Positions 8,385 to 53,656 of a DNA stretch of 64,000 nt are shown here, piece after piece (within the stretch, counting starts at the first letter, position 1; each line of letters starts with the position of its first letter). The notes beneath the pieces were generated by a model. The model ran no database searches. It worked only from the letters and a program-made list of their open reading frames with translations, and was not told the DNA's origin. Both the position numbers and the translations under genes were made by a program. The DNA lies in contig JABDCW010000003.1 in NCBI GenBank assembly GCA_013287905.1, forward strand, positions 8,921 to 72,920, written 5' to 3'. The DNA comes from Chlamydiota bacterium (lineage in GTDB: Bacteria; Chlamydiota; Chlamydiia; Chlamydiales; Parachlamydiaceae).

Positions 8385-8397
8385 ACTTTAGCAAATA

Positions 8398-17487: not shown

Positions 17488-17570
17488 AGAATCTTTCTTC
17501 AAAATTCAAATTGAAGAATTGGTTATGTGCCCGTGAGCGCATCCGATTACCCATAAGTCCAATAAGCAAT

Positions 17571-17843: not shown

Positions 17844-17900
17844 TATCTATTGACATCACTTTGTAAACAAGTATTTTATGAGTTATGGGTAATAGGCTGC

Positions 17901-19511: not shown

Positions 19512-19700
19512 CAGGTGCCCGGACATTAAAACAATTTATTGAAACACAGAGATACAGAGGGCACAGAGAATTTCTTTTTTGCCGAAAAGCAAAAAAGAAA
19601 TAGCCTGTTTTTCGCTTCCGCGGAAAAAAAGATGTGCAATAGCTTGTCTCTGTGTTCTCCGTGCCTCTGTGTTTAAAATATTTGTTTTAATGTCCGGTCA
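19512..19700. mobile_element. hairpin element, CACAGAGG-unit family, flanked by a 15-bp direct duplication
   Basis: Termini are ccggacattaaaacaa / ttgttttaatgtccgg. Arms are aaacacagagatacagagggcacagaga / tctctgtgttctccgtgcctctgtgttt. It is the reverse complement of 53498-53656 plus an extra inner hairpin. cccaggagggctata occurs at both 19497-19511 and 19701-19715. Confidence 0.85.
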
Positions 19701-19703
19701 CCC

Positions 19704-23001: not shown

Positions 23002-26000
23002 TTGAATCCAAATAATAAACAGGCAAAACAAAAACCCGCTATCGATGATCCTGACTTTTATAAAAATGCGTTCGATGTTGCCGTACAGCAACGGAACTTA
23101 AGCTTTTTGCATGAGGGGGATAATTTTAAAAGGGTCTGTGCTGATGAATACAATGAATTGTCAAAACGGCTGGACCGGTCGGAAATTCAGGAAAGCTGCT
23201 CTGTGCGCAATGTTTTACGCACAAGGCGCCTCGCAAAATTGCTGATCAATGAACAGGGAATTATCAACCTTTCTGTCATCCCGAAATTACTGGTAAACCT
23301 CAAAAAAAACCTCCATTCCTTAGGCCCAAACCGGCAATATGATTCAAAACGCAATGTAAACACATATCACGCTTTGACTTATCTGGCCGAAAATAAACAG
23401 GCCGTCAACCTGATCCAAAGTGTCGACAAACCTCTCAATAATCCAAAAATCGATCAATTGATCCGCGATACTTTGTCGCTTTCCAGTTCACAAAACTTGA
23501 CAAATGCCCATGCCAGGAGAGCGGTGTTATCAGCCTGGTTATGCACATTAAGGCAAAATGTTGGATCATGTTTTGCAACAGCACCAGGCATTATCGTTCA
23601 CGACGAACAACCAGACGGCTTTCTCAACGATTTAATCTCATTGATCAGCACAGGGCAATTAAAGCGCACATTTGGAGGCGTCGAATATTCTGTCCCATTA
23701 AGCTTAAGCTGGGGGGCAGGGGATCTTAAAAAGCGGTTTCCACTGCAATTGGGGAGTGATTTTGAAGAATCTACTATTTTGGCGTCTCCTGGACTTGAAG
23801 CTGCCTTTGAATCGGCAAAACTCATCGATGCAAATCAAAAGGGAGAGGCAAAATTAGCGCAAATCAAAACATTGATCCGCTCCGCCTTTAAGGAAACTGA
23901 AGATCAGGTTAACACCATTTGGACGTCAGCCGAAGAGATCATTCGAAATGTTTTATTGAACATGCTGAACCTCACAAACCAGGATATTTCCGATTATGAG
24001 AACAGACCCAAAGCGATGATATATGGCAGCTTAATGATGCAATCCACTAAAGAAAGTGGAAAAACAGGATTGTGCAGCCAGTTTGTAACGCTTTTCTCAC
24101 AAGCATGCGATGCTTTTAAGGGGTTGAGCGATAACGCGCTGTTAAAGGCCTGGGAATTTTCTTTAGCTTCATTTGCAGAAACTAAGGCCCAATTTACCAA
24201 ATGGAACCTTTACTCAAGCCTTGGAATGGAATGGCAGGAGCCTTCCGGCATCGGATCTTGCATCTATGCAATTGTCCAAAACAAGCTGAATGAGGCAAAC
24301 CAAAAAGTTGCCGATATGCAATATGAGTACGAACAAGTCTTTCAACAGTTAAAAACGATGGAAAGCCGCATGCAAGGCGTTTCCAGTGAAAGAGAGGGGC
24401 AGTGGCTCCGGGTCGAGTATCAAAGTAAACGCAATGAATTTTATACACTGGAGCAGTTGAGGAACACCCTAAGTAATAGGGCGCATATATTAGCTAACCT
24501 GTACCAGGTATTGATAGAACGATATGACGGGCTATTTCCAAGTTACTTTCAAGAGGTCTACGATGCCGATATGCATGATGTGACATCGGGTCCCTATGAT
24601 GATAGTCCGGCCGGTTTTCGCCTCCTTTATAAACATGGAAGAGCCAATATTTCCCAATGGTCTTATATTAAAACGCCAACCGAATTTGTCGAAGCCCTGG
24701 TCGCTTTTTTTACATCGACTGAAAATGAAATCGTTTCTTTAGAAGAAACGCAAGGGTTGCAGGAGGATGTCTCAGCTATTATTACGGCAATTGTTTCCCA
24801 TCTGCGCACAAAAGAATTCTTAGAAACGGCCTTTTATAGAATGGCTGCAGCCCATCAAATGCCCATCGTTAAAGATCCCTTGAATCATTTGGAAAAGATT
24901 GAAAAAAAGCCGTGGGCCTATACATCAGGCGGAACTATGTCCACTTTGGTAAGCTGCTACTATAAATTGAATGATAAACCGACGGAAGTGAACAGGTGGG
25001 TCGACAATACATCAGAGCTATGTGCTTTTTTAGTCGATACCATGAAGTCCATTGCACCTAAAATCATGGAAAGATATCTTGGCAATTCCGCGACAAAATC
25101 GATGCTCATTCATTCTCCAACACATGCTTTTCTGCTAAAGCCGGGCTTGCCGATTTTTAAATCTGCCTGGCAAAGCGATGTTTACACTTATACCTGGATC
25201 AAGGATAAAGTTGTCGTTCCACAAAAATCCTTTTACGAAAATCTTTGGCTCGATGAGGAAATGATGAATTTTCTCATCGACAGGCTTACTCAAACGATTC
25301 CGCAAGATATTCGTCACTATTTTAAAAAGACATTTTCTCATTTGTATGGAAACAAACATCCGTCGTCTTTCAGAGCCTTGCTTGCCGAGCGCCTGCTATC
25401 AGATAAGGGCTTTATACGGCATGGCTATTATGCCGTGCATCCAGACCAAATCGATAGCATGTTATTTACCCTCCTTCCGCTGTTTCACCGCCATTCCCTT
25501 AAGGAACGCATCCAAGCCATTTTTTCTGCTATTCCCATTTTTTCCGAAGAAGATAAAGTGGGTCTGCTAAAACTCTTCGATGAGCTGTCATCGTCCTCTC
25601 AATCTACAGGGGTGATGGGCGCAAATGAATTGCAAGATATTTGCAAAGGGCTTATTTGCCTGTATTTCAATATGACACATTCTGAAGTTGATTTTCATGC
25701 TCTAATCAGTGCAACTGCCCAAAATCTTGGATTTGCGTCCCCGGCCCCATTTATTTTTGCAGACACGAATTGGGTTAAAGATGAATTTGGTTTTGTCGTC
25801 AACCCGGGCACGGGTGAATTTGAGTTATGGAGGGTAGACATCACAGGGCGGGTGGGATTTCCCATGTCGCCATGGAAAAAATGGCTGGACGGAAGCCATC
25901 GCCAGCCGACATGGGGGGTTTGCAATCGCCCCTATGAATATAGCTACAGTCCTTCGCAAATGAAAATAAGCGACTCGGGACTTATCAATAAGATGCGCTT

Positions 26001-26028
26001 CCTTCCAGAAAAGAAATTTTTAAAATAA
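23002..26028 (+). CDS. large hypothetical protein with a papain-like Q-x4-GSC[FW]A motif
   Basis: 1008-aa ORF with a TTG start. RQNVGSCFATAP covers Q185/C190 (the Cys codon is 23569-23571). Candidate His residues are in FHALIS (H899) or THAFLL (H708). ADTNWVKDEFGF covers N923/W924. No TM segment or signal peptide. Confidence 0.7.
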   Translation: MNPNNKQAKQKPAIDDPDFYKNAFDVAVQQRNLSFLHEGDNFKRVCADEYNELSKRLDRSEIQESCSVRNVLRTRRLAKLLINEQGIINLSVIPKLLVNLKKNLHSLGPNRQYDSKRNVNTYHALTYLAENKQAVNLIQSVDKPLNNPKIDQLIRDTLSLSSSQNLTNAHARRAVLSAWLCTLRQNVGSCFATAPGIIVHDEQPDGFLNDLISLISTGQLKRTFGGVEYSVPLSLSWGAGDLKKRFPLQLGSDFEESTILASPGLEAAFESAKLIDANQKGEAKLAQIKTLIRSAFKETEDQVNTIWTSAEEIIRNVLLNMLNLTNQDISDYENRPKAMIYGSLMMQSTKESGKTGLCSQFVTLFSQACDAFKGLSDNALLKAWEFSLASFAETKAQFTKWNLYSSLGMEWQEPSGIGSCIYAIVQNKLNEANQKVADMQYEYEQVFQQLKTMESRMQGVSSEREGQWLRVEYQSKRNEFYTLEQLRNTLSNRAHILANLYQVLIERYDGLFPSYFQEVYDADMHDVTSGPYDDSPAGFRLLYKHGRANISQWSYIKTPTEFVEALVAFFTSTENEIVSLEETQGLQEDVSAIITAIVSHLRTKEFLETAFYRMAAAHQMPIVKDPLNHLEKIEKKPWAYTSGGTMSTLVSCYYKLNDKPTEVNRWVDNTSELCAFLVDTMKSIAPKIMERYLGNSATKSMLIHSPTHAFLLKPGLPIFKSAWQSDVYTYTWIKDKVVVPQKSFYENLWLDEEMMNFLIDRLTQTIPQDIRHYFKKTFSHLYGNKHPSSFRALLAERLLSDKGFIRHGYYAVHPDQIDSMLFTLLPLFHRHSLKERIQAIFSAIPIFSEEDKVGLLKLFDELSSSSQSTGVMGANELQDICKGLICLYFNMTHSEVDFHALISATAQNLGFASPAPFIFADTNWVKDEFGFVVNPGTGEFELWRVDITGRVGFPMSPWKKWLDGSHRQPTWGVCNRPYEYSYSPSQMKISDSGLINKMRFLPEKKFLK

Positions 26029-26356: not shown

Positions 26357-27703
26357 CTAATTACCTGATGGAAGAGCAGCCCCCCAAAGCGCACAGTTCC
26401 CAAACATCTGATCGTTCTCCTGAGATTCAAGCCAGACAGCGACAGCATGACCTGAGGGACTGACCTTAACGCGAGGGGAATGGATCAATTTCTGTGACGC
26501 AAACAGATCTTCCGCAGGGGCCCACACCCCGTTTGGAGAACGTAGCGCCGTTTGGACAGTAGAATTTTTTCCATTTGTCTTTGTCCACAGGGCAACTGCA
26601 TGGCCTGAACTATCTACAGCAACACTTAATTCATACATCTGACCATTTTCAGATAGTTGAACGGGTGTACCCCATCCCTGATCAGGCACATAGGTACTGC
26701 ACATCACGCCGCCATTTTGCCCGGCTGATTCTATCCAAAGGGCAATTGCATTGCCATTTGGGTCCATGGCTATGACCGGCCACTGTGCATCTTTGGTTCC
26801 ATCAGACAGCGACTGAGGCGATGACCAGACACCTCCATGCGGTAATCCTGAAGCTAAGACAGCATAATGCGATTTATTTTGTAGTTCAGACCACAAGACA
26901 ATGGCATTTCCTTGATTATCCGTTACTGCAGAGGGGGTAATAGCAACATTTTTAGTATTGGAAAGAACGAGATTTTGCCCCCACGTCTTTCCATCAAATG
27001 CGACTGACCCAATATCGGAATAGAGAAAACCTTCATATTTCTGCTTTTCCGATACAGCTACAGCATTTCCATTACGATCAACTGAGACTGCGGGAAAAAG
27101 AGCCGCTTCTGAGGCGGTAGAAAGGGTAACTGGCAAAGACCACCCGGTGTTTTGTTTACGCACCGATCCTTGCAAAACGATGCTGCCATAGTTCTTAACA
27201 AGGCACCATACGGCGACAGCGCCGCCCCATTCTGAGTTTACTCCAAGCGCTAATTCGTTGGCATCTTCAAATAATTGATTAGGATCATCAAAGGTAACAT
27301 TCACAATATCAGACCACTTTCCTGATAATGGCAGTGTTGCACTCTGCACCTTGTGGTTGCCTCCGTTAGAATACCTCCATATAGAAATCGTATCTCCAAA
27401 GCAATCAAATCCGACTTTCGGCATATCCGACCCCGGCTGGGAAATGGCAACAGGAGAAGACCAGCTTCCATTCGCCTGCAGTCGGGAATACTGGACAACG
27501 TATGTCTCATACTGTTCTCCTGTCCGCCACACACATGCAGCATTGCCGTTTTTGTCGACAGCAAGATCAATGTCTTCTGCAAAGCTTGGCGCAATTTGCG
27601 CTGGTTTCGACCAATTAGCAGCAGATAGTTGCGACAACGATATAAAAAAACAAGCAAATGAGGCTTTTTTGGTTACACTTAATATTTTCTTAAAACCCAA
27701 CAT
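26357..27703 (-). CDS. secreted repeat protein (beta-propeller-like, about 8 repeats of D.NGNA.A.W)
   Basis: A signal peptide is present. Recurring blocks are DKNGNAACVWR, DCFGDTISIWR, WGGAVAVWC, DRNGNAVAVSE, DNQGNAIVLWS, DPNGNAIALWI, DSSGHAVALWT and SPSGHAVAVWL. Confidence 0.7.
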   Translation of the reverse strand: MLGFKKILSVTKKASFACFFISLSQLSAANWSKPAQIAPSFAEDIDLAVDKNGNAACVWRTGEQYETYVVQYSRLQANGSWSSPVAISQPGSDMPKVGFDCFGDTISIWRYSNGGNHKVQSATLPLSGKWSDIVNVTFDDPNQLFEDANELALGVNSEWGGAVAVWCLVKNYGSIVLQGSVRKQNTGWSLPVTLSTASEAALFPAVSVDRNGNAVAVSEKQKYEGFLYSDIGSVAFDGKTWGQNLVLSNTKNVAITPSAVTDNQGNAIVLWSELQNKSHYAVLASGLPHGGVWSSPQSLSDGTKDAQWPVIAMDPNGNAIALWIESAGQNGGVMCSTYVPDQGWGTPVQLSENGQMYELSVAVDSSGHAVALWTKTNGKNSTVQTALRSPNGVWAPAEDLFASQKLIHSPRVKVSPSGHAVAVWLESQENDQMFGNCALWGAALPSGN

Positions 27704-29132: not shown

Positions 29133-29610
29133 GGACAATGGACAACATGAGACAATTGCAGAAGTCTTTGGATTAAAAACAACCGATAATAATTCAACGC
29201 AAAGGCGCAAAGACGCAAAGATAATAAACAGCTTTCAAGGATATACGTCACAGACATGATCAACGATTATAACGATATAACGATAAAAACGATAAAGACT
29301 CTGTATAAGGAAATTTATAGCTTGATTTGACCCATTCACTTTTATCGGGTGACCCGATAAAAGTGAGACGCTTTAAGCCGCTACTTGAAAGGCGAGCTAA
29401 GGAGATTTAAAGCGCTCTGAAATCGCCTTTTAAGTAGCGGCTTAATTTGAGATACGTTAGAAGCCAATTCTTGAACTTGTTTTTATCTTTGCGTCTTTGC
29501 GCCTTTGCGTTGAATATTTTGCTAGCCCTGAATAATCTAAGACTTTTGCAATTGTCTCACATGGACAACATGAGACAATTGCAGAAGTCTTATAAACTGT
29601 CTTAGATTAC
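29133..29610. repeat. three-level nested repeat pile upstream of sdhC
   Basis: The outer arm ggacaatggacaacatgagacaattgcagaagtct (29133-29167) pairs with gacttttgcaattgtctca (29541-29559). Inside it lies the CGCAAAGG-arm element at 29193-29514. That element holds an AACGAT half-arm (29257-29298) and the double-hairpin core (29336-29442). There is an extra local hairpin at 29541-29590. Confidence 0.85.
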
Positions 29611-29625
29611 TGAAGGCAAAGAAAT

Positions 29626-29704
29626 ATTAAACACAAAGGCACAAAGACACTAAGGATTGAATTCTCTCTTTGTGCCTTTGAGCCTTCGTGCCTTTGTGTT
29701 TAAT
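29626..29704. repeat. hairpin repeat, CACAAAGG-unit family (variant)
   Basis: attaaacacaaaggcacaaagacac ... gccttcgtgcctttgtgtttaat, 30 nt upstream of the sdhC ATG. Confidence 0.85.
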
Positions 29705-29734
29705 TTGTTTGAATTTTAAATAGGTTCTTATTAG

Positions 29735-35093: not shown

Positions 35094-35248
35094 GCGTCAA
35101 TTCGAAGGCCTTATTGCATAATTATATTTAGTATTATCTATTTGATTATTAATAATTTAACCGCAGAGATCGCAGAGCACGCAGAGAGGGAATAACCGCA
35201 GCAGGAACCAAGGGTAACATTTATCCATAAATATCGAGAAAAGCATGC

Positions 35249-35563
35249 CTATAGCAAACGCTCTTGCTGGCAGCTTTCCGCCCAATCCCGAAAAATTTGG
35301 AGTACTTCTGGTAAATTGATTGGGCCACATCGTCCTTCAAATTTATTATTTTCAATAAAACAAATAAGCCAGTTGTGATCGGAACACTCTTTTTCAATTT
35401 TTTGAAAATTCAGATCTTGCAATTCAGTATCTTCTAAATTAATACTAATGGACCAACCAGGATTATCCATTGAATCTACATGTATACCTTGTCCATGCTC
35501 CCAATCACCATTACAATGATCATAATACCATTTTAGCAACCATAAAAAAACATTTTCATTCAT
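35249..35563 (-). CDS. Imm53-like immunity protein (copy 2)
   Basis: MNENVFLWLLKWYYDHCNGDWEHGQGIHVDSMDNPGWSISINLEDTEL...IFRDWAE parallels copy 1. I prefer the ATG at 35563 over 35596. Confidence 0.75.
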   Translation of the reverse strand: MNENVFLWLLKWYYDHCNGDWEHGQGIHVDSMDNPGWSISINLEDTELQDLNFQKIEKECSDHNWLICFIENNKFEGRCGPINLPEVLQIFRDWAESCQQERLL

Positions 35564-35577
35564 AGATAGTATTCCAA

Positions 35578-35870
35578 TTAATCTGGTATTTCCCATAATT
35601 GAGGAGGTCTAATGCCACCTTTGAGGATGTTCACGTGGTAGCATCGTTATATATCAGGCCTTCAGCCTGAAGGCCTGAGTTATAGTGAATAGACCTGGTG
35701 AACATGTACTAATATATGGTTGTTGACGTAAGGGAGTTTTGCTTTGGGTTTAAAGGCTTCTAAATGAACATGGGGTCTCCAAGAATCATATTTGCCAAGC
35801 AACGAATTTCTCTAATGATCATGACATTCATACCATCAACGTGATTGTCTCCGGTTTCATGTTAGAAGGC
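35578..35870 (-). pseudogene. decayed orphan toxin tip (same family as 36190-36729)
   Basis: The end reads HVNILKGGIRPPQLWEIPD*, compared with MHDPLCAGGIRPPQLWEIPR*. Upstream, HLEAFKPKAKLP compares with HYETFKPQSNFK. The fragment is interrupted by stops, frameshifts and a small hairpin (caggccttcagcctgaaggcctg). Confidence 0.6.
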
Positions 35871-35874
35871 TTGC

Positions 35875-36186
35875 TTATGGCAAACGGTCTTTTTGGCATC
35901 TTTCCGCCCAGTCTCTAAAAATTTGCAGAACTTTATCAAGATTACAGCAACCACATGATGCTTCAAATGCATTGTTCCTCAGCAAACAAAAGTACCAATT
36001 CATTTCATCAATTTCAAATTGAACAGAAGAAAAAGGGACCCCCTCGCATTCGGTTCCTTGTAAATTTATTACTACATACCAACCAGGATTATCTACTGTC
36101 TCAATTTTAATACCATATTCATGTTCCCAATCTCCATCACATTGTGACTTATACCATTTCTGTAACCACTCAAAATTATTTTCCAT
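35875..36186 (-). CDS. Imm53-like immunity protein (copy 1)
   Basis: MENNFEWLQKWYKSQCDGDWEHEYGIKIETVDNPGWYVVINLQGTE...IFRDWAE is the Imm53 pattern as I recall it. It starts 3 nt after the orphan toxin stop. Confidence 0.8.
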   Translation of the reverse strand: MENNFEWLQKWYKSQCDGDWEHEYGIKIETVDNPGWYVVINLQGTECEGVPFSSVQFEIDEMNWYFCLLRNNAFEASCGCCNLDKVLQIFRDWAERCQKDRLP

Positions 36187-36189
36187 TTT

Positions 36190-36729
36190 TTACCTTGGTA
36201 TTTCCCATAATTGAGGGGGTCTGATCCCTCCAGCACATAGAGGATCATGCATATGGGGTGTTTTTATTTCCTTTTGAAGAATTTTATTAGTATGCCCTTT
36301 ACCATTTCCATCGTATCTTTTTACACTTTCCCAAGGATTTGGATTCTTAAAATTGCTTTGAGGTTTAAAAGTTTCATAATGGCTAATTTTACCAGTTATA
36401 GAATCACGTCTGAATACTGAATGGGCTCCCATTGCATTTGCATCTGCAACAAATCTGTTACGTCCAATTTTTTGAGCAACTTCCGTTATCCCCTTCCCCA
36501 CATCAAATGCTACTGCTTCTCCCCCTCTTAAAGCAGAAGTTCCCTTTGAGAAGCATGAAGCAAGTACAGCAAAGTCAAAAAAAGCTTCTCCATAAACTGT
36601 GCATCGCTCACTAAATGGTACAATTGAATCGAGATAATATGCCTTCATGCATCCAGGCGCAAAAGCACATCCTAGACTCTCGATGGGAGCTTCTCTGAAC
36701 CTTTGGGACAATTCACCCCATTCATTCAC
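36190..36729 (-). CDS. orphan RHS C-terminal toxin module (no N-terminal RHS body)
   Basis: Residues 2-80 are homologous to RHS residues just upstream of its variable tip (NEWGELSQRFREAP.ESLGCAFAPGCMKAYYLDS...RGGEAVAFDVG.G). A different ~100-aa tip follows. It begins with a GTG 2 nt after the preceding immunity stop and has no RBS. Confidence 0.75.
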   Translation of the reverse strand: MNEWGELSQRFREAPIESLGCAFAPGCMKAYYLDSIVPFSERCTVYGEAFFDFAVLASCFSKGTSALRGGEAVAFDVGKGITEVAQKIGRNRFVADANAMGAHSVFRRDSITGKISHYETFKPQSNFKNPNPWESVKRYDGNGKGHTNKILQKEIKTPHMHDPLCAGGIRPPQLWEIPR

Positions 36730-36731
36730 AC

Positions 36732-37199
36732 TTATATAAAATAAATTTTTGATATAATAAACGATGTAATTATTTGATTTTTTATACCAACAATTAAATC
36801 ATTAGAAATTTGAAAAAAGAGAGAATTAGAATCATCATCAGTTAATTTTATTTTTAGGATTCCTTCATTTGAATATTCATAAATTGGTATAAACCTAAAT
36901 GAATATCGATCGGTATTTTCATACCCCTCAAGAATTTTTAATAAACCAACTCTGCAAATTTCTGGAAGTTTTATTTTATCTACATATACCCAGTTTTTTT
37001 TATTTGTAAAAGCATCTAGTGAAATAAATTTTTTATTCAAAGAATTAAAGGTAATCGTTAATGTGTCATATATTAATAAAAATTGATCAAATATTTTATA
37101 GGAATTTGTTTCATATTCAAGTGAATATTCATTTTGATAATAAAATCCTTTTCCCGATTCCTCGTACTCATTTTCAAAAACACCTAATTTTAATTCCAT
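36732..37199 (-). CDS. putative cognate immunity protein of the RHS toxin tip
   Basis: 155-aa ORF starting 10 nt after the RHS stop. It is very AT-rich compared with its neighbours. No family recognised. The call rests on position. Confidence 0.65.
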   Translation of the reverse strand: MELKLGVFENEYEESGKGFYYQNEYSLEYETNSYKIFDQFLLIYDTLTITFNSLNKKFISLDAFTNKKNWVYVDKIKLPEICRVGLLKILEGYENTDRYSFRFIPIYEYSNEGILKIKLTDDDSNSLFFQISNDLIVGIKNQIITSFIISKIYFI

Positions 37200-37209
37200 A
37201 TTTAACAGC

Positions 37210-40200
37210 TCACTCGTAATGAAAATGAAATATTTTCTTGTCTACTTCACTATAAATAATATTCAGTTCATATTCTTTGTTGTTTTTGAATATGTTGCGA
37301 ATAATTTTAGTTGTGTTTGCAGTCATTTGGGGATCTGGTATTTTAGTACCACTATTAATTGCTTCAGCAAGAATATGACGTGGTACATATCGATTGGGAT
37401 TAGACATATGTTTCATTGTTGCGTGGGTGAAGTTTAATTCCTTGGCTAAGTTTACACTGGCCTCAACTTCCCCTATAAGTTTCACACCCCCCCTCCCCAC
37501 ATCAAAAGCTACCGCTTCTCCCCCTCTTAAAGCAGCAGTTCCCTTTAAGACGGATGAGACAAGTACAGCAACGTCAAAACAGGCATCACCATAGGCTGAA
37601 CAATGGTCAGCAAGTGAGGCATTTGAATCGAGATAATATGCCTTCATGCATCCGGGCGCAAAAGCACACCCTAGGCTTTCCATGGGAGCTTCTCGGAACC
37701 TTTGTGACAATTCACCCCATTCATTCCAGGTATTGTGCATTTTATTGTTGAGAGCGGAAGAGTCACCATAGTATTCATATTCAAAATCGGCGTTCAGCCA
37801 ATGACCCATATTGCTGGCGGAATGGAAAGCGCCTGCACCGAAGTTGTATGCCCCAGCTCCAAATCCTCTACAAAAGTTTAGACCTCCCTCCCATAGACTT
37901 TCCCCCCAAAGGCCATAAGCATCGATCCGGTTTAGAGGATTATTACATAAATAGGCATAGAGATTTAGACCATCTATAAACTCGGCAGGATCAGGAGAGG
38001 TCCAGCGGGCAATCTGGGGATCATAGTAGCGCCTTCCAAAATAAATTAGCCCTGTCTCAGGATCAAAACGTTTACTTGCAAAGCGCCAGGGGTTGAGATC
38101 TCTATTTTCGTTTAGTTCACTGCCAAACGAAGAATAGTGATACACTTTTGAGGGTTTACCGTCAGATGTCAGAAGCATTGAGACATTGCCGAAGATGTCA
38201 TGAAGGGGAATGAAGAACTCCTGGTCAAGTTTGATGGCTATGGCAGATCCATGTTCAGAACCATCCATGCTTAAAATGCGAAGTTCTTGCATCTTCCCAT
38301 TTCTGAACATCCCAATTTCATTTTGTCCATCATAGAGATAGCTCTCTTCGCCCTTTGAAAGGCGGCGATCAAATGGGTCGTAAACGTAATGAACCGATTG
38401 ATCAGGAGTTACGACAGAAATCATCCGGTTGAGGGCATCATAAGAATAATGGGTGATCTTTCCGTACTCATTTTTTTGAATGCGATTCCCATTGCAATCG
38501 TACGTGTATTTAATGTTATCCTGCTCCAGAAGCTGGTTTAAAGAATCTATTGCACAAGGGAGTTGATCTTTGGCAATTCGGTTGTGAAGGGAATCATAAG
38601 CAAAATCATGACTCTCTGCCCCTTCTTCAGATGTAAGCCGATAAAGATCATCGTAATGAAACTTTCTGGGAATAGTACCTGAAGAATCTTCCATTTGATC
38701 GGAAAGAACATTTCCCGCTTTATCAAAGCTTTGGATCGAATGCCGCAAAGCCGCATGGTTTAAGCTAAGCCGTCTTTGATTGCAATCATAGAGATAGCTT
38801 ATTGTGCCTGCTTGTTTTGGCAGAGTGCTTTTTAGGAGATTTCCCGATTCATCATAGGCATCAAATGTATGTGTCATTTCATTGCATGTGACCGACTTGA
38901 GGTGGCAGGCGTCATATGCAAAATGAACTTCCACATTTTCAGGAAGGATCATTTGCGTCTTTCTGTCCAGACAATCATAGGAATAGCCGATGTGTAGACC
39001 ATTTCCCAAAATTTCTTTTTCGAGCCGCCCTTCGGGGGTAAAGATCCGATAGGTTGTTTGGCTATTCACCGCATCTTCCACTGCAGTGACCTGGTCGTTC
39101 CGGTTATAGGTGTAACGATAAGAAATAGTACCGTCAGATGCAGATAGTGCGGAAAGCCTCCCTTTCGCATCATAGGCATGTAACAAAACAGTCCCATCCG
39201 GCTTTATGTAAGAAGCTTTTTGGCCGGATTGATTATATGAGTGGGTGGTTGTTCGCTTGTGTGGAGTATCGGGATTCTCGGTTTGCATGATCATTTGATG
39301 CATGGAATTATAGATCCATTCACAGACATATTGCGAGCGATAAACACCATCGATCAAATTCTCTTCTTCAATGCGCAGCAAGTCTCCTTCGAGATTGTAC
39401 AAGTATTTTTTCTGTGAGAGAGGCAGCCCATACGCATTTACTTTTTGCCTTTCGATTGTCCTTCCAAGGGGATCTTTTATCTCAATCGTTACATTTCCCA
39501 TTGGATCCATTGTATGAATCTTGGTGCCGACAAGTCCACCATCTAAGGGATAACGATAGTCGTACAGGTACTCCGTGACATTTCCTTCGGGGTCGATCTC
39601 TTTGAGAATTTCCTGACGGCTGCTATAGAAAGACTGGGAAAGGGACTTTCCCGTTTTCGTTTGAGTTTTCTGTCCAAATGAATTGTATTCGTATTCCGTC
39701 TGAAGGTAGATTCTGCCTTCCAGATCTTTAGTAACTTCTGAAAGAATTTGCCCTATTAAGTCGTAGGTATACTCCTTTATCCTTGCTTCTTGATCTGAAA
39801 TCCAAGAGATTTCCTGAAAAATGTTTCCAAGGGAATCGTATATGTATGTTGTCTTTGATTTTCCCGCTGTTTTTTCAATCAGGCGGGCGGCTCCATCGTA
39901 TTTGTAGATGGTCAACATCCCTTCCCCATCCTCTTCGGAAGTCAATAGGCCGCCCTTATAGGCCCTTTTACTTTGGCTTAAAAGCTGTCCTTCAGGACTA
40001 TAGAGTTCCTCCGAAACGATCTGATTTTGGCAGTCTCTTAGGTAAAGAGTATAGCTTTGATTTTTATGGACAGTTTTATATAGAGCCCCATTCAGGTAAT
40101 ATTCAAATTGCTCTTTTGTTCCATCCGGATAATTTATATGAAGAGTGTCGCCATTACTATTGTACTGTGTGTGCGTTGTAAATCCAAGTCTATCCTTATG

Positions 40201-42441
40201 CAAGATTTGATGACCTAACGTGTCGTAGAAAAATGACTCTATTGGCTGAACAACAGTGCCATTACTAACTACCGCAGGATAAGTGATGGATTGGAGCTTA
40301 TTCTCATCGTTATAAGAAAAATAGGTGGTATGCCCCTGATGGCCCGTTGTAGATATTCTATTTCCGACAAGATCATAGCAATGCCGGGTTTCAAAAGATC
40401 GCCCATCCTTGTGCCGCTCTTCTACCCGTATTAACCGGTTCATCAGGTCGTAATCATAGTGTGTAGCAAACCCGTGCGAGCCATTTTCTTCGAAGATCAG
40501 ATTATCGTTTTTATCGTAACTTCTTCGAATTTCCTCTTTAAGGGCATTGATCTCTTTAACGACATTTCCATGAGGGTCATATTCCCAATAGAGAGTATAT
40601 TGAAGGACATTTACAGCATCAAAGACTTCCTGCTGAATCAGTTTTCCATCAATGGCATAGCTATTGACAGTCCGCTTTAACTGTCTTTCCTCATTTGTCT
40701 TAAGATCTAAGAATGTCTCGGTGACTTGTTGAGGCAAACCAAAAGGGGCGCAAGCGGTGGGGAGAAAATGGGTGATTTTTCTGAAAGTGATTCCTGAAAT
40801 ATCTTCCTTATTGCTTGTAGAACCATCATCGACTATTTTTTTAGTAAGAAACAAATTCTCATCATAGTCGTTAAATTCCCTGAGTAAAATTTGGGTTTCA
40901 CTATTGACGACAAGCTTTGAAGTGACTGCGCTGCTGTTGGGGTAGTAACTATAGAGAATTCCTTTTCCATTACTTTCCCGGTCAGTGAGCACATCATTCC
41001 CGTCGCTGTAGGAAAAATGATGATCATAACAATCAGCGCCATTTGGGACGGGTTTAGAATTCCCATCCAGAATAATTTGTGGCGAATTTTTTCCTGTGAT
41101 ATTTCCGTAACTGCTCGACCTTGTTACATTGCCCCTGTCATCGTAGTCAAATACTTGCCCTTTCAAAATATTGGCATAGGGATCTCTTACATATTTGGCA
41201 AAGAGATTGCCATCCGATTCATAATAAAATGAATCCCTTGAAATTTCTTGGGCAAAGCTATTATAGCGAAGAACATGGATTAATCGTTCATCCTGGTCGT
41301 AAATGTAGGTCATCTTCTGATTGTAGGGATCGATAACATCTGTAGAACCAAATAGCAGTTTCCCTTGAGATTTATTGAAGCGATAAGAAAAACGATGCGT
41401 GGCAAGATATTCCCCATTTTTCCCAATAGGAGCTTGAATTTCTTTTACGCGATCAACCAAGTCCCCTCCCTTTTCATAATAGATAAATTTTAAACCTCTA
41501 CCTTCGGGGAGGGTTTTTTCATTGATGATTAAATGATGATCATACCGGCAGGATTTTGTGTAGGAGTATTTAACAGTTGGCTTTTCCGGATTTTCAATAG
41601 AATTTAAATACAAAGTTTCCCAGATTATCCCATTCTTATTTCGCTTTTTCTTTTCGAAATGATAGGTGACTTTTTTTCCTGTTGAGGAGTCAACAACGAG
41701 TTCCCTACCATGTTTAGGATAGGTAAAATTAAGTTTACCATAGACAAGAGTATCTGCCCGGTTCCCTTGGCGAATTTCTGCTATATCGAGATCTCGATTA
41801 TAGCGAAAATGTTTTTTTGTTCTGTCTGAATTGGTTTCTTCATAGAGAGCGAAGGATACCCAGCTACCCTCTCTTTGGCCCTGTAGAAAAAGTTGCGCGG
41901 TACCATCCCCAGAAATAAGCTCTCCTGAACATCTATATTTTTTGTCTCTATTATTGAAAGAAAGAATGTTGTTTTTGATATTTGTTTTGCCACTTATCTT
42001 TTTTGATCCACAGTTTGTGTACCCTTTAGTAGGAGTAAATGTAAAAGCTATTTTTCCTTTCGGTTTGTGTTTCAAACTGACTTCAAATTTCGCTCTTGCC
42101 CCATGCGGCGATGTTACAAGCGCTGTGCCTGTGCCTTTGGGGTCTGGCTGGTAATAAAAGATTGGGGTCGGTTCAATAAAATGCCAACTTCTGTATAGAT
42201 CGGCACCCGAGGTATCCCCACTGCAATATGTACGTTGGAGCATAAAAGGACGAGGGCCTGGAAGAACCAAATCCTGCTCGTGGATCACAAGCTCGCCGGT
42301 AATTGCAGACACATGGCCGGCGACAATTGAGCTCGACAACCCTTCTGTAGAGGCAAGGGAGTCTGTAGTCAGAGAATCAAATTCAGCTCCGGAAATCGTG
42401 GCAAATAGAAAAAGCAGCACACATAGTAATATTTTTTTCAT
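37210..42441 (-). CDS. RHS / YD-repeat polymorphic toxin with Sec signal peptide
   Basis: I prefer the ATG at 42441 (MKKILLCVLLFLFATISGAEF). There are dozens of YD repeats (Y.YD..G....). The core ends with RYYDPQIARWTSPDP...NPLNRIDAYGLW (W codon 37906-37908). A 231-aa C-terminal extension follows. Confidence 0.9.
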   Translation of the reverse strand: MKKILLCVLLFLFATISGAEFDSLTTDSLASTEGLSSSIVAGHVSAITGELVIHEQDLVLPGPRPFMLQRTYCSGDTSGADLYRSWHFIEPTPIFYYQPDPKGTGTALVTSPHGARAKFEVSLKHKPKGKIAFTFTPTKGYTNCGSKKISGKTNIKNNILSFNNRDKKYRCSGELISGDGTAQLFLQGQREGSWVSFALYEETNSDRTKKHFRYNRDLDIAEIRQGNRADTLVYGKLNFTYPKHGRELVVDSSTGKKVTYHFEKKKRNKNGIIWETLYLNSIENPEKPTVKYSYTKSCRYDHHLIINEKTLPEGRGLKFIYYEKGGDLVDRVKEIQAPIGKNGEYLATHRFSYRFNKSQGKLLFGSTDVIDPYNQKMTYIYDQDERLIHVLRYNSFAQEISRDSFYYESDGNLFAKYVRDPYANILKGQVFDYDDRGNVTRSSSYGNITGKNSPQIILDGNSKPVPNGADCYDHHFSYSDGNDVLTDRESNGKGILYSYYPNSSAVTSKLVVNSETQILLREFNDYDENLFLTKKIVDDGSTSNKEDISGITFRKITHFLPTACAPFGLPQQVTETFLDLKTNEERQLKRTVNSYAIDGKLIQQEVFDAVNVLQYTLYWEYDPHGNVVKEINALKEEIRRSYDKNDNLIFEENGSHGFATHYDYDLMNRLIRVEERHKDGRSFETRHCYDLVGNRISTTGHQGHTTYFSYNDENKLQSITYPAVVSNGTVVQPIESFFYDTLGHQILHKDRLGFTTHTQYNSNGDTLHINYPDGTKEQFEYYLNGALYKTVHKNQSYTLYLRDCQNQIVSEELYSPEGQLLSQSKRAYKGGLLTSEEDGEGMLTIYKYDGAARLIEKTAGKSKTTYIYDSLGNIFQEISWISDQEARIKEYTYDLIGQILSEVTKDLEGRIYLQTEYEYNSFGQKTQTKTGKSLSQSFYSSRQEILKEIDPEGNVTEYLYDYRYPLDGGLVGTKIHTMDPMGNVTIEIKDPLGRTIERQKVNAYGLPLSQKKYLYNLEGDLLRIEEENLIDGVYRSQYVCEWIYNSMHQMIMQTENPDTPHKRTTTHSYNQSGQKASYIKPDGTVLLHAYDAKGRLSALSASDGTISYRYTYNRNDQVTAVEDAVNSQTTYRIFTPEGRLEKEILGNGLHIGYSYDCLDRKTQMILPENVEVHFAYDACHLKSVTCNEMTHTFDAYDESGNLLKSTLPKQAGTISYLYDCNQRRLSLNHAALRHSIQSFDKAGNVLSDQMEDSSGTIPRKFHYDDLYRLTSEEGAESHDFAYDSLHNRIAKDQLPCAIDSLNQLLEQDNIKYTYDCNGNRIQKNEYGKITHYSYDALNRMISVVTPDQSVHYVYDPFDRRLSKGEESYLYDGQNEIGMFRNGKMQELRILSMDGSEHGSAIAIKLDQEFFIPLHDIFGNVSMLLTSDGKPSKVYHYSSFGSELNENRDLNPWRFASKRFDPETGLIYFGRRYYDPQIARWTSPDPAEFIDGLNLYAYLCNNPLNRIDAYGLWGESLWEGGLNFCRGFGAGAYNFGAGAFHSASNMGHWLNADFEYEYYGDSSALNNKMHNTWNEWGELSQRFREAPMESLGCAFAPGCMKAYYLDSNASLADHCSAYGDACFDVAVLVSSVLKGTAALRGGEAVAFDVGRGGVKLIGEVEASVNLAKELNFTHATMKHMSNPNRYVPRHILAEAINSGTKIPDPQMTANTTKIIRNIFKNNKEYELNIIYSEVDKKIFHFHYE

Positions 42442-42532: not shown

Positions 42533-43786
42533 TCAACCGTTATTAGACTTTTGAAGATCCTCATGCTCAAATGCAGAGGACATCCGATCGATTTCTGCTT
42601 TTTTTATTTTAAATTTCGCAGCCTCCTTTCGCCACAAAGCCGTAGCCCCACTCACTTCTCTCAAGATTTTTCTTGCCTCTGTGGAGTCGATATCAAAATA
42701 ATGGGCCACACTCAATGCTAAATCAATGGATGCACTGGGGTCTGTCAGATCGATGGCTGTGGAGAGGATTCTTGGTTTGATATCTGTTGGCACAGGATTC
42801 AAATCATAAGCGGGCGATATGCGCCAACCTTGCAAGCCTGAATAAAGAAATGCGTGATTACGCAAGTGGTCATCTACGTTAGATACCAAAACATTAAAAA
42901 CAATCCGGCGCCAAAGGGATGCTAAATCTTCTTTAGGGGAAGCACTCATTTGACGTATGGCATCTGCTATTTCAAGATAACTATGCATTTCATTATCTCT
43001 CGCAGAAAGAGCGCTCATAGCAGACAGGAATGGAATACGAAAGTAACCTTTTCGATCAAACCGCCTGGATATAAGAATTTGCTTGTGACCGATAGATTCG
43101 AGACGCCATTGAGGGACATCAATTCCTGCTTTGCCGGCTAGAGTAAGAGTAACCGCTTCCCATGCAATGATATTTATTTCATCGCTATCGCTTGGAAATT
43201 TAGCAATGCTTAAGTGCCCATCTTTATCCCTTACAGAAGCCTTGGGTCTGGCTCCGCCTAAAGATGATCCGGGAGCCAGCAATAATCGAAGGTCTTCTTC
43301 AGTATCCGAATCCTGCAAAACGTGAGTTGCTGCTGTAAGAAGTTTACCAACTGAAACTAAAGGGGGAATATGATTCTTATGATAAGTCGTTAGAAAAGGA
43401 CCCTGCTCACTCTCTTTAAAGCGGATGGCTCCTTGTCTGCCTTCGTCATCAACCATTAATAAGAAATCGATTTCTTTTAAAGCGCGCGGGGTTCTTTTCT
43501 CTTTTTCAGCATCTTTTCTCTCAGAACGCCGCATGAGCAGGCGTCCCCAACGATCAGGAGCAGAATCATCAATGGCTCCAAAAATCGGCTTATCAGCTGA
43601 TGCATGAAAAGAGCCGCCAGCTAATTTTAAAGCCGGGTCCAGTGAAAATCGGTTTGTATGCTGCAGCCACTCCCTGTCATATTCAAAGGACATACTTTCT
43701 CGTCCATTGCGAAAACGTCCCCAAAGCTGACCTACTTTTAGCGGGACTCCTAAGAGATCCACGTAGACAAGGATAGCCTGTTCCAT
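42533..43786 (-). CDS. hipA: HipA-family serine/threonine kinase toxin
   Basis: The N-terminal coupling domain has GQLWGRF...FEYDREW. DSAPDRWGR, the HipA_C region with GGARPK, and DDHLRNHAF (catalytic loop) are present. The ATG at 43786 lies 1 nt after the hipB stop. Confidence 0.85.
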   Translation of the reverse strand: MEQAILVYVDLLGVPLKVGQLWGRFRNGRESMSFEYDREWLQHTNRFSLDPALKLAGGSFHASADKPIFGAIDDSAPDRWGRLLMRRSERKDAEKEKRTPRALKEIDFLLMVDDEGRQGAIRFKESEQGPFLTTYHKNHIPPLVSVGKLLTAATHVLQDSDTEEDLRLLLAPGSSLGGARPKASVRDKDGHLSIAKFPSDSDEINIIAWEAVTLTLAGKAGIDVPQWRLESIGHKQILISRRFDRKGYFRIPFLSAMSALSARDNEMHSYLEIADAIRQMSASPKEDLASLWRRIVFNVLVSNVDDHLRNHAFLYSGLQGWRISPAYDLNPVPTDIKPRILSTAIDLTDPSASIDLALSVAHYFDIDSTEARKILREVSGATALWRKEAAKFKIKKAEIDRMSSAFEHEDLQKSNNG

Positions 43787-43787
43787 C

Positions 43788-44120
43788 TTAAGTACCACTA
43801 CTGTCTTTTTTGGAAATTCGGATCCGTTTCGGCAAATTTTCCTCTTCCAATTCCAGACCTAATTGATCTGATGCAGAGTCGACTAATTCAGCTAGTCGTC
43901 CGACCATGCCTAAAACAAATAAAACCCGGGCATATGCCCCCAATGAGACCCCCTCTTCCCCCCTTTCAATTTTGCTTAAAGTAGCGCGGGTAATAGACGC
44001 TCGTTCCGCAGCAAGTTGCATGGGGATTCGGCGTCTTTTTCTGGCATTGCAAAGATCCTGACCGAGCTTTTTCAAAGCTCGTTTGACAGGAATGGGTGTA
44101 TTTTTAATGTTCATATTCAT
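43788..44120 (-). CDS. hipB: HipB-like XRE-family HTH antitoxin
   Basis: The HTH region is LCNARKRRRIPMQLAAERASITRATLSKIERGEEGVSLGAYARVL. It lies immediately upstream of hipA. I prefer an ATG at 44120 or 44114 over the TTG at 44132. Confidence 0.8.
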   Translation of the reverse strand: MNMNIKNTPIPVKRALKKLGQDLCNARKRRRIPMQLAAERASITRATLSKIERGEEGVSLGAYARVLFVLGMVGRLAELVDSASDQLGLELEEENLPKRIRISKKDSSGT

Positions 44121-44151
44121 ATACCATACCAACTTTATTGTATAGAATTGG

Positions 44152-44281
44152 ATACATTAAGTCAATTTATCAGGAATAATAATCGAGCTCTTCATTTTTT
44201 TTGGTCCTATTACTCTCCAATTGAAGATCCTAATGTTCAAATGCAGAGGAGATCCGATCGATTTCGGCTTTTTTTATTTTA
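44152..44281. other. rearrangement scar: copy of the 3' end of gene 45058-45849 fused to a copy of the hipA 3' end
   Basis: 44152-44219 aligns to 45040-45111 as a direct repeat. 44221-44281 aligns to 42551-42611 (encodes KIKKAEIDRISSAFEH* versus KIKKAEIDRMSSAFEHED). Confidence 0.85.
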
Positions 44282-44370
44282 CCTAAATTTTTTTTAATTT
44301 TCATTGATCCGTCATTGTGATATTCTATTGGAAAGACGAGAATTTTCAGCAAGAGGCTGGTAAATAAGGT

Positions 44371-45021
44371 ATGATAGACGACATTTGCCCAATTTCTGGG
44401 GAGACTGTAAGAGAAGAACGAGTCAACCAATGGACGCATTTCATCGGATTGCTCCTAAGTATGTTCGGCTTTCCTATTTTGATTGTGTACAGTAGTTTGA
44501 AGGGCGATGCTTGGCATATTGCGAGTTATACCATCTATGGGGTGACGCTGATTTTACTCTATTTTGCTTCTACCTTCTACCATGGCTGCAAAACGTTGCA
44601 TAGCAAAAAACATTTAAGGGTTGTGGATCACGCTTGCATCTATCTTTTAATTGCAGGTTCCTACACTCCCTTCACATTAGGCCCTTTGAGGGAAACTAGC
44701 GGTTGGATTCTACTTACCATTGAGTGGAGCATTGCCGTTGTTGGTATTCTATTTAAAATTTTCGCTATCGATCGACTTAAAACGTTCTCTCTTATTACCT
44801 ATCTTCTCATGGGATGGTTGGTCGTTGTCAGTTGGTCGACGCTAATGGAAACACTTTCCACCTCCACTCTCGTCCTAGTGGGCATAGGAGGGTTATGCTA
44901 CACTTTAGGTTCTATTTTCTTTGTCTGGGAAAATTTGCGGTTCAATCATGGCATTTGGCATTTATTTGTTCTTGGGGGAAGTGGGTGCCACTACTGCGCC
45001 ATTTTATTTCTGCTAGCCTGA
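44371..45021 (+). CDS. hemolysin III / PAQR-family channel protein
   Basis: 216 aa with 7 TM helices. NQWTHFIG, FYHG, VDHACIYLLIAGSYTPF and HLFVLGG are typical of HlyIII/YplQ. Confidence 0.85.
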   Translation: MIDDICPISGETVREERVNQWTHFIGLLLSMFGFPILIVYSSLKGDAWHIASYTIYGVTLILLYFASTFYHGCKTLHSKKHLRVVDHACIYLLIAGSYTPFTLGPLRETSGWILLTIEWSIAVVGILFKIFAIDRLKTFSLITYLLMGWLVVVSWSTLMETLSTSTLVLVGIGGLCYTLGSIFFVWENLRFNHGIWHLFVLGGSGCHYCAILFLLA

Positions 45022-45039: not shown

Positions 45040-45111
45040 ATACATCAAGTCTATTTATCAGGAATAATAATAATCGAGCTCCTCATTTTTTTTGGGTCCT
45101 ATGACTCTCCA
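45040..45111. repeat. direct-repeat partner of 44152-44219
   Basis: atacatcaagtctatttatcaggaataataataatcgagctcctcattttttttgggtcctatgactctcca. It overlaps the 3' end of the 45058-45849 gene. Confidence 0.85.
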
Positions 45112-50753: not shown

Positions 50754-50913
50754 GGTGAATTTCAGACTTTCCGAGAATTTTAAGTGCAGTATACATTACT
50801 TATATCTATAAATTAAGTAACATATGATTAAAAATCGGGAGAATTTTGGATATTTCTGATTTCCAACTGACATCAACCGTCAAAATAAGAGAAGTTATGA
50901 TATAAGTTGACGA

Positions 50914-51078
50914 TATACCGAAGGTGGTTCAAAAGTTGGGATTTTGACAAGGAGGCTGCTCAAAATTTTTCGTCTGGAGCGAGGGGCCATTGCCAATGGC
51001 CAAGGCACGAGTGAAGACAAAAATTTTGATGCAAAGCCAACGCAGTCAAAAACCAATTTTTGAATCACGTTCGGTATA
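50914..51078. mobile_element. 165-bp MITE-like palindromic element (inverted relative to 8925-9089)
   Basis: tataccgaaggtggttcaaaagttggg...ccaatttttgaatcacgttcggtata. Its reverse complement is about 90% identical by eye to 8925-9089. A TA dinucleotide lies at both junctions. Confidence 0.85.
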
Positions 51079-51104
51079 ATACTATATAAAGGTTAGTAGC
51101 ATAA

Positions 51105-53497: not shown

Positions 53498-53656
53498 CCA
53501 GGTGACTGAGCATTAAAACAAATATTTTAAACACAGAGGCACGGAGAACACAGAGACAAGCTATTACACATCTTTTTTTTCGTGGAAGCAAAAAAAATCT
53601 CTGTGTCCTCTGTGTCTCTGTGTTTCAATAAATCGTTTTAATAAAAAGTCGCCTGG
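53498..53656. repeat. hairpin element, CACAGAGG-unit family
   Basis: ccaggtgactgagcattaaaacaaatattttaaacacagaggcacggagaacacagaga ... tctctgtgtcctctgtgtctctgtgtttcaataaatcgttttaat...gtcgcctgg. It is the reverse complement of 19512-19700 without the inner hairpin. It abuts the wzt stop. Confidence 0.9.

Follow-up and report, generated by a model that had tools for sequence, protein, structure and literature searches.

A probable Sec-exported RHS toxin locus with a stack of displaced toxin and immunity cassettes in an uncultured environmental chlamydia

The 64,000-nucleotide (nt) stretch of DNA analysed here, hereafter the window, spans positions 8,921 to 72,920 of contig JABDCW010000003.1 from the Chlamydiota assembly GCA_013287905.1. 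It probably carries the locus of a Sec-exported RHS toxin from an uncultured, Parachlamydiales-like environmental chlamydia, and in this locus the full-length toxin gene is followed by a stack of successively displaced toxin/immunity cassettes. Domain searches confirmed the overall reading of an earlier note on this DNA, which had described an RHS toxin locus made up of an active tip and immunity gene, an orphan tip with an Imm53 gene, and tip remnants with a second Imm53 gene. Two contigs from other data sets match the product predicted for recombination between the active and the orphan tip.

Results

An intact RHS gene with a two-part C-terminal extension

The RHS gene reads as one continuous open reading frame (ORF) of 1743 amino acids (aa) and is intact. 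Its Sec signal, YD repeats and core are borne out by Pfam and TIGR03696 matches and by inspection (Table 1). From the ATG at 42441 the protein begins with MKKILLCVLLFLFATISGA, the frame being open back to a TTG at 42570, and no lipobox was seen on inspection of the signal peptide. YD/RHS repeats run along the body of the protein (Pfam RHS_repeat PF05593, E=3e-36; YD_repeat_2x TIGR01643, E=2e-21) and are followed by an RHS-associated core that scores 83.5 bits against the TIGR03696 cutoff of 32.5. The core ends in NPLNRIDAYGLW, presumably the autoproteolytic boundary, where the cleavage-type motif reads DAYGL and not the DPxGL of the PxxxxDPxGL type. C-terminal to the core, the 231-aa extension comprises a linker of ~139 aa and a toxin tip of 92 aa (tip A), which agrees with the linker and ~90-aa variable tip that had been proposed.

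Within the linker, GFGAGAYNFGAGAF is a stretch like a Gly zipper and CFDVAVLVSSVL is a hydrophobic helix; the motif MGxW(L/M)xADFxYE is also present. The homologues P0015, P0039, P0053, P0066, P0095, P0099, P0105 and P0156 keep the linker as part of RHS C-termini, and past it these proteins diverge into unrelated tips, that of P0105 being a barnase-type ribonuclease (RNase; PF00545). No Pfam or NCBIfam family matched the linker, and it has no sequence similarity to known entry domains. By analogy with the entry domain of CdiA-CT, the C-terminal region of the contact-dependent inhibition (CDI) protein CdiA, it may have a role in delivery or entry. A linker scan of genome contigs gave no match, in a collection without the window's own species. 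Spurious pattern matches saturated the linker scan of metagenomes, and the sole contig returned was L084, which holds a second orphan that keeps the 3′ part of the linker with a different tip.

The final portion of the linker recurs in the orphan ORF downstream. As the earlier note described, this shared tract lies in direct orientation; its coordinates had been off by no more than 3 nt. A repeat finder places the two copies at 36490-36727 and 37489-37726 (238 nt, 85% identity, start-to-start spacing 999 nt). Identity along the tract is uneven, at 93% over nt 1-102, 59-79% in the middle and ~90% at the end, and the longest identical run is 31 nt, starting at 37653 on the minus strand. The encoded 79 aa are 76% identical, and protein alignment bears out that the first 34 of them differ at a single residue. 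Because the shared tract corresponds to the 3′ 79 codons of the linker, the recombination handle is the conserved post-core domain and not the Rhs core.

Tip A and its putative immunity gene

Tip A belongs to a widespread family that curated databases do not cover. At E<=1e-3, an exhaustive HMMER search with the linker and tip A as query gathered 286 cluster representatives, almost all of which cover query residues ~145-231 at the C-terminus of the matched protein; a word-indexed protein search with the linker and tip A returned the orphan as its sole match. Homologues of tip A end RHS (P0017, P0047, P0075), PT-TG (P0027) and M23/PPC (P0042) proteins, and such C-terminal placement on varied carriers is what one would expect of a polymorphic-toxin tip. 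No Pfam or NCBIfam model matched any of 40 members, tip A and 39 homologues, and on this result DUF4258 was rejected as an assignment. The family alignment (A2) yields the consensus LxFTxT..HM..R.VP..IL..AI..G...PDPQG......KNGK.Y.LEV.Y.....I.HF.Y, in which the near-invariant R35, D54, N71, Y75, H90 and Y93 are candidate catalytic residues.

With the family alignment, AlphaFold2 modelled tip A as three helices and a four-stranded sheet at a predicted local distance difference test (pLDDT) score of 88.7, as against 39 from the single sequence only. The top Foldseek matches of this model are CdiA-CT of Serratia BWH57 (7M5F chain C, 119 residues), MqsR, RelE and HigB2, all of them RNases of the BECR (barnase/EndoU/colicin E5-D/RelE) fold (PMC8616854). 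The model is suggestive of a BECR/RelE-type RNase, an assignment that we favour with some reserve. Counting against it, the Foldseek matches are individually non-significant (E 0.075-1.8, template modelling score 0.34-0.42), and tip A is without any matching sequence model. A profile search of tip A against the PDB gave a weak match to 5i4q (E=0.43) and spurious matches to designed repeats.

The gene downstream of tip A, imm155, encodes a putative immunity protein of 155 aa. Its homologues come from chlamydia-like sources only, including Criblamydia sequanensis, and no Pfam or NCBIfam family matched it. Contig L086 has homologues of both side by side, that of tip A (54% identity) immediately upstream of that of imm155 (57%). 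Contig L085 carries two imm155 homologues in an RHS-linked array with Imm8, Imm53 and Imm32, and the terminal 19 codons of a tip A-like domain stand before one of the two. An immunity role for imm155 is supported because the gene is paired with tip A elsewhere and sits in an immunity array; the conserved synteny in L086 and L085 thus favours the earlier view of this AT-rich ORF as the putative cognate immunity gene of tip A. The cassette appears to be the latest arrival at the locus because of its low G+C content (34% in tip A and 22% in imm155, against 41% in the window).

An orphan Ntox24 tip with its Imm53 partner

Downstream of imm155 the orphan ORF joins its copy of the shared tract to a second tip (tip B). 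The NCBI and Joint Genome Institute (JGI) gene callers both call this 179-aa ORF. The sequence bears out that its GTG start lies 2 nt past the preceding stop and has no purine-rich ribosome-binding site (RBS). The earlier note had concluded that the orphan can be expressed only after recombination. The missing RBS speaks for this, but 'only' goes further than the sequence does, as the position of the GTG allows translational coupling.

The earlier note could not assign tip B to any toxin family; by homology it is a divergent Ntox24 domain. Its own match to Ntox24 (PF15529) reaches 15.1 bits (E=0.03), below the Pfam gathering threshold (GA) of 24, which weighs against the assignment. The bridge is protein P0007, which matches the orphan at E=1.2e-21 and scores 30.6 bits against Ntox24, above GA. 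Tip B and its few database homologues share the motifs HYETFKPQ, NPNPWESVKRYDG and PHxHDP, and Y118, H103, H146 and H161 are invariant in the family alignment (A3), in keeping with the conserved Y, H and H of Ntox24. That domain has been described as all-beta and as a predicted metal-independent endoribonuclease (Zhang et al. 2012, PMC3482391). Its carriers include RHS proteins, its trafficking is listed as 'T2SS' (signal-peptide), its immunity partners are Imm50 or Imm53 and its taxa include chlamydiae; few other polymorphic-toxin domains share its occurrence in type II toxin–antitoxin (TA) systems (PMC3482391). We found no demonstrated Ntox24 activity in the literature, and a profile search of the PDB with the Ntox24 alignment gave no match.

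The first Imm53 gene starts 4 nt past the tip B stop, behind a good AAGG RBS. The second is 52% identical to it and is intact despite its decayed toxin. Pfam (PF15580) bears out both Imm53-like genes, which score 116.4 and 117.4 bits (GA 25), and both copies carry DWEH and NPGW, in line with the W, WE, PGW and W motifs of the family. Because of the Ntox24 homology and the adjacent Imm53, the orphan cassette can be read as a divergent version of a known toxin–immunity pair. The Ntox24 and Imm53 pair recurs as 5′-truncated remnants in the chlamydia-like contigs L084 and L087.

Remnants of further tips

Between the two Imm53 genes, in a stretch riddled with stops, lie remnants that the earlier note had read as one decayed tip of the tip B family. 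This is right for the last 12 codons, which are Ntox24-like and abut the second Imm53. The fragment at 35707-35811, whose frame runs on to a stop at 35680, matches instead an unrelated tip, that of the linker-bearing protein P0019, which is unrelated to the Ntox24 profile. BLASTP and hhalign rejected the placement of this fragment and tip B in one family. As read from the sequence, the cassette stack records at least three displacements.

Contigs that match the predicted recombinant

An exact lookup of the first Imm53 yielded two contigs (L001, JGI 3300021007; L002, Logan SRR8424012) that join the RHS gene without interruption to the Ntox24 tip. Against a recombinant made in silico from the window sequence, nucleotides 1-5825 of L001 and all 1085 nt of L002 show 100% identity. 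The crossover lies inside the only 31-nt identical run and the RHS-Ntox24 fusion is in frame; the seven diagnostic single-nucleotide polymorphisms (SNPs) upstream are of the main-gene type, and all those downstream are of the orphan type. A further contig (L003, run SRR8433217) is the loop unitig expected of the window arrangement, with the 31-mer at both ends.

The main-type SNPs upstream of the crossover mean that the fused form is best read as a deletion derivative of a window-type arrangement. A model in which the window arrangement arose by insertion into an ancestral fused form was rejected as the simplest one, because it is then the orphan copy, and not the main copy, that should agree with the fused contigs on the upstream side of the crossover. 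The first 102 nt of the orphan differ from the fused contigs at 7 sites, whereas the main-gene copy is identical to them. The earlier note had foretold that recombination would delete tip A and its immunity gene, and L001 and L002 are the predicted product, although they may be artefacts.

Indeed, the stack could be a static fossil record, in which displacements are past events, only the retained immunity is functional downstream, no switching takes place in vivo, and L001 and L002 are products of template switching between the direct repeats during multiple displacement amplification (MDA) or of de Bruijn graph traversal of the 31-mer in assembly. We hold this to be a serious possibility, if a somewhat doubtful one. 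Much of what weighs against a natural recombinant speaks for it. The fused contigs show no SNPs relative to the window and therefore have the same genotype, with the deletion as their only difference. Their crossover is the single shared 31-mer, which matches the k-mer size of Logan, and L003 starts and ends at it, so this 31-mer breaks k=31 graphs. Recombination would have a short, diverged stretch to act on (102 nt at 93%, with the 31-nt perfect run, against 522 bp at 95% in Salmonella), and a simple deletion would leave recombinants sensitive to the tip A of their siblings. Many of the related metagenome-assembled genomes (MAGs) and the samples holding identical contigs are JGI Nextera 'mini-metagenomes' (isolates BWOrgHeat / BWMinHeated), which we take to be MDA-amplified pools of sorted cells from forest soil. 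L001 itself ends in a second direct deletion junction of ~890 bp (~0.9 kb), which removes sdhB and is biologically implausible. Here, at 5826-5881 of L001, window position 33796, close to cinA, is joined to 32906 in the 3′ part of sdhA across 14 nt of imperfect microhomology. This end junction is probably an MDA or assembly chimera, which bears on the trust that L001 deserves.

Other observations fit an artefact poorly. The fusion junction lies 2.9 kb inside L001, in an assembly normally made with k well above 31. L002 passes the shared 31-mer without branching, and no imm155 contig is on record from the samples of L001 and L002, whereas one was recovered from another run; this absence has to be read with the caution that a JGI assembly may filter out short loop contigs. 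True RecA recombination, too, favours the longest identical run and gives a background that is 100% identical. Weighing these points together, we lean slightly towards an origin of the fused contigs in vivo rather than as an MDA or k=31 assembly artefact.

Proposed function and other explanations

We propose that the RHS shell is exported by Sec and that the core aspartyl protease would cut after ...DAYGLW, with the linker and tip staying encapsulated. The linker, through its glycine-zipper-like stretch and hydrophobic helix, may then act like a CdiA-CT entry domain. Tips A and B, both predicted RNases, would kill cells that lack the matching immunity protein; imm155 would neutralise tip A and Imm53 would neutralise tip B. 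The retained Imm53 genes would protect against relatives still firing the older tips. RecA-type recombination between the tract copies would delete tip A and imm155 (999 bp) and fuse the RHS gene in frame to Ntox24.

Two explanations would give parts of the locus another purpose. In one, the RHS protein is a host-directed effector (anti-amoeba or anti-eukaryote), like Tc-type or other RHS toxins that intracellular bacteria make, and immunity protects the producer only before export. The producer is a chlamydia, presumably obligately intracellular, and the window ORFs include no apparatus for contact-dependent delivery by bacteria. Intracellular bacteria have been argued to aim many of their toxins at the host, but the same work links host-directed toxins to absent immunity genes (Zhang et al. 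2012, PMC3482391). Here an intact Imm53 outlives its toxin, the multi-immunity array of L085 is a signature of interbacterial conflict, and both tips resemble RNase families of interbacterial systems, so we regard a host-directed role as improbable. In the other, the orphan Ntox24/Imm53 pair is an internal TA-like module, its GTG coupled to imm155, that modulates chlamydial growth or persistence in the host. The spacing of the GTG behind the imm155 stop and the agreement of both gene callers suit such a module, as does the known occurrence of Ntox24 in type II TA systems, and a Salmonella study (PMC7043789) reports orphan Rhs elements as TA modules. The orphan is without an RBS, however, and its promoter signal did not exceed background in a promoter/terminator scan (18 sites, with 21 expected). 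Its ORF begins in mid-linker, exactly where the homology starts, which looks like a displacement remnant and not like a designed start, and comparable cassettes in L084, L085 and L087 are truncated at arbitrary points. A TA-like module is, in our judgement, very improbable.

For the displaced-cassette locus that we prefer, it is conceivable, though rather unlikely, that the fused contigs are real and that, in a single clonal population of an obligately intracellular soil chlamydia, cells with different RHS warheads live side by side, switched by recombination through a linker that is an undescribed entry module. If so, toxin warfare between chlamydiae sharing a host cell would be active and ongoing, and the linker would be a new entry/translocation module for Sec-exported RHS toxins of diderms without a type VI secretion system (T6SS).

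Table 1 Features of the RHS locus and its borders (window coordinates)
Feature	Position	Strand	Basis or remark
RHS polymorphic toxin gene, full length	37210..42441	minus	Single uninterrupted ORF, 1743 aa from ATG
Signal peptide, ~aa 1-19	~42385-42441	minus	Inspection: MKK + ILLCVLLFLFATI + SGA|E
DUF6531, aa 43-87	42181-42315	minus	Pfam E=3e-8
RHS-associated core, aa 1436-1511, with last core residue W1512 (37906-37908)	37906..38136	minus	TIGR03696
Linker, first part, aa 1513-1572: Gly-rich GFGAGAYNFGAGAF, then MGHWLNADFEYEY	37726..37905	minus	Main gene only
Shared tract, main-gene copy, aa 1573-1651, NEWGELSQRF...FDVGRG including CFDVAVLVSSVL	37489..37726	minus	Direct repeat
Tip A, active toxin tip, aa 1652-1743	37213..37488	minus	Exhaustive HMMER family, AlphaFold2 model
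imm155, 155-aa putative tip A immunity gene	36732..37199	minus	Conserved pairing with tip A
Orphan ORF, 179 aa, GTG start	36190..36729	minus	Shared tract and tip B
Shared tract, orphan copy	36490..36729	minus	Direct repeat; GTG 2 nt past imm155 stop
Orphan toxin tip B, divergent Ntox24 by homology	36190..36489	minus	Homology via P0007
First Imm53, partner of tip B	35875..36186	minus	PF15580 E=4.8e-34, full length
Fragment of third, different toxin tip, RNSLLGKYDSWRPHVHLEAFKPKAKLPYVNNHILV	35707..35811	minus	54% identity over 35 aa to P0019 C-terminus
Near-palindrome, 79 nt, 39-nt arms, 74% complementary	35627..35705		Parts the two tip remnants; unique in window
Last 12 codons of decayed Ntox24-type tip, GGIRPPQLWEIP	35584..35619	minus	89% to 36196-36231; abuts second Imm53
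Second Imm53	35249..35596	minus	PF15580 E=2.4e-34; alternative start 35563 gives 104 aa
Left border, three 9-nt-periodic GCAGAG units	35161..35190		Like one arm of window hairpin repeats
Right border, hipBA (hipA 42533-43798, hipB 43788-44132)	42533..44132	minus	HipA_C E=7e-47, HTH_31

Producer, delivery genes and related loci

The window's SdhA matches Chlamydiota MAGs only (Parachlamydiaceae, Waddliaceae and others), at up to 79% identity. Pfam also identifies a DUF648 protein in the window, a family that we take to be specific to chlamydiae. As the earlier note had stated, the window offers no secretion partner of the kinds looked for: Pfam scans of the 40 other window ORFs found no VgrG, Hcp, PAAR, TcA/TcB or TpsB, and only housekeeping functions were assigned to these ORFs. 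The RHS protein is without PAAR or prePAAR, and no EagR-type partner was found among the same ORFs. SpvB/TcB N-terminal, beta-propeller and TcA domains are likewise absent from the RHS protein and the window ORFs by Pfam.

Two related loci are of note in their own right. Nucleotides 1-9400 of L085 (JGI 3300037810, Ga0376277_0003931) are chlamydia-like; behind an RHS gene, small genes extend over ~7 kb, and many unassigned ORFs accompany Imm8, Imm53, Imm32 and the two imm155-like genes in a stack much larger than that of the window. The Chlamydiae MAG contig L047 (JABDCT010000009.1) carries at 18-3886 a different RHS gene, 35% identical to the window's and within ~10 kb of sdhA. From inspected translations, its product has an unrelated C-terminal extension, and a possible lipoprotein gene follows.

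Borders and other repeats in the window

At the left border, on the side of cinA/sdhCAB, the units at 35161-35190 do resemble a single hairpin arm, as the earlier note had it. The corresponding intergenic hairpin repeat family, built of ~9-nt periodic units (CAAAGGCAC / CAGAGxxxC), occurs at 8394-8500, 17564-17848, 19514-19702, 29187-29711 and 57296-57409, and the border copy is like a lone arm of it. Pfam bears out hipBA as the right border; this module is not part of the toxin system. The window contains no tRNA, and no Rfam family was found at the island borders.

A 61-nt direct repeat (93%; 42551-42611 / 44221-44281) brackets hipBA, its second copy being the 3′ end of a former hipA (ORF 44230-44439, ending ...KKAEIDRISSAFEH); the bracketing repeat suggests that the hipBA module was replaced or inserted. 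Direct repeats of ~55 nt (94-97%; 44152-44204 / 45040-45095) flank a haemolysin-III-family gene at 44371-45021. Elsewhere, a ~2-kb tandem duplication (2840-3007, 4021-4593, 4796-4962 and 6008-6580) has given two peptide deformylase genes with 300 nt at 96% identity, and matches to the Acido-Lenti-1 RNA (RF01687) at 2842-2887 and 4798-4843 each lie ~1.2 kb upstream of a def gene. The window also holds an inverted repeat of 171 nt (92%; 8924-9094 / 50909-51079) with its arms 42 kb apart, and an inverted pair at 19608-19702 / 53501-53595 (93%). Pfam matched neither of the large ORFs at 23002-26028 (1008 aa) and 26357-27703 (448 aa) at E<=1e-5.

Discussion

Polymorphic toxins and immunity arrays are considered rare in intracellular bacteria, on the view that these seldom compete with conspecifics (Zhang et al. 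2012, PMC3482391). The spare intact warhead, the retained antidotes and the possible switch variant of this locus argue that environmental chlamydiae fight each other. The RHS-Ntox24 junction is concrete and testable by polymerase chain reaction. The locus also draws attention to tip A (at least 286 cluster representatives) and its 155-aa partner as an uncurated toxin/immunity family, and to the conserved post-core linker as a possible explanation for the access of Sec-dependent RHS toxins to their targets.

Among the known systems, the Bacillus subtilis toxin WapA is reportedly built in a similar way, with a Sec signal, an RHS/YD shell, an RNase-type C-terminal toxin and an adjacent immunity gene, and without a T6SS. 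The chlamydial protein shares the Sec signal, the RHS shell, the C-terminal tip of (here predicted) RNase type and a neighbouring, here putative, immunity gene. WapA is wall-associated in a monoderm, whereas the chlamydial producer is a diderm, whose toxin would need a route across the outer membrane and into the target.

The displacement architecture itself was, as the earlier note had recognised, already established in proteobacteria, in the rhs-main/orphan arrangement of Salmonella and in cdi orphan modules. In Salmonella Typhimurium LT2, recombination between rhs-main and the rhs-CT-orphan has been shown experimentally, the fusion deploying the orphan toxin (Koskiniemi et al. 2014, PMC3967940). 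Both loci have a full-length rhs gene with its immunity gene (putative in the chlamydia), then a 5′-truncated orphan without start or export signals and with an immunity gene of its own. Both also have a direct homology tract, through which recombination yields (in the chlamydia, would yield) an in-frame fusion that deletes the main tip and its immunity gene. The tract in LT2 is 522 bp at 95% identity in the Rhs core-coding region, and delivery is by T6SS (PMC3967940). The chlamydial locus differs in having 238 nt at 85% in the post-core linker, a Sec signal only, a chlamydial host, and two contigs of uncertain authenticity as its candidate recombinants. The Salmonella switch was proposed to follow locus duplication, which keeps immunity to the main toxin (PMC3967940). 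Coexisting forms with identical backgrounds would fit this model but are not proof of it.

In the cdi systems, too, downstream CT/immunity modules keep some upstream homology (Poole et al. 2011, PMC3150448), and a sub-domain common to different toxins precedes a small nuclease tip (PMC3150448, PMC8616854). The closest structural neighbour of tip A, by a non-significant match, is the CdiA-CT BECR toxin 7M5F. Unlike CdiA-CT, the carrier here is an RHS protein and not a TpsA filament, and the entry role of the linker is drawn by analogy. The immunity arrays of Vibrio cholerae T6SS auxiliary clusters likewise keep older immunity genes after loss of the effector, as a historical stack (PMC5361080); the chlamydial RHS stack differs in also keeping an intact spare toxin.

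RHS toxins that have a Sec signal but neither T6SS nor Tc partners already form an accepted class, listed as 'T2SS' by Zhang et al. 2012 (PMC3482391). The locus architecture is less novel than the earlier note implied, because that catalogue lists this class together with RHS, Ntox24 and Imm53 in chlamydiae. As in the catalogued pair, an Ntox24-homologous tip is followed by Imm53, with RHS, 'T2SS' and chlamydiae listed for both families. The match is not complete, in that tip B falls below the Pfam threshold and the catalogue's Imm53 row tags chlamydiae with Ntox10 and not Ntox24. Beyond this catalogue, we found no chlamydial RHS orphan arrays described in the papers searched. The architecture and switching logic (Salmonella, CDI), RHS toxins with a Sec signal, the Ntox24-Imm53 pair and chlamydial RHS toxins are already known. 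What the present locus adds to them is a chlamydial example with an intact spare tip, the uncurated tip A/imm155 family, the linker as homology handle and a candidate natural recombinant.

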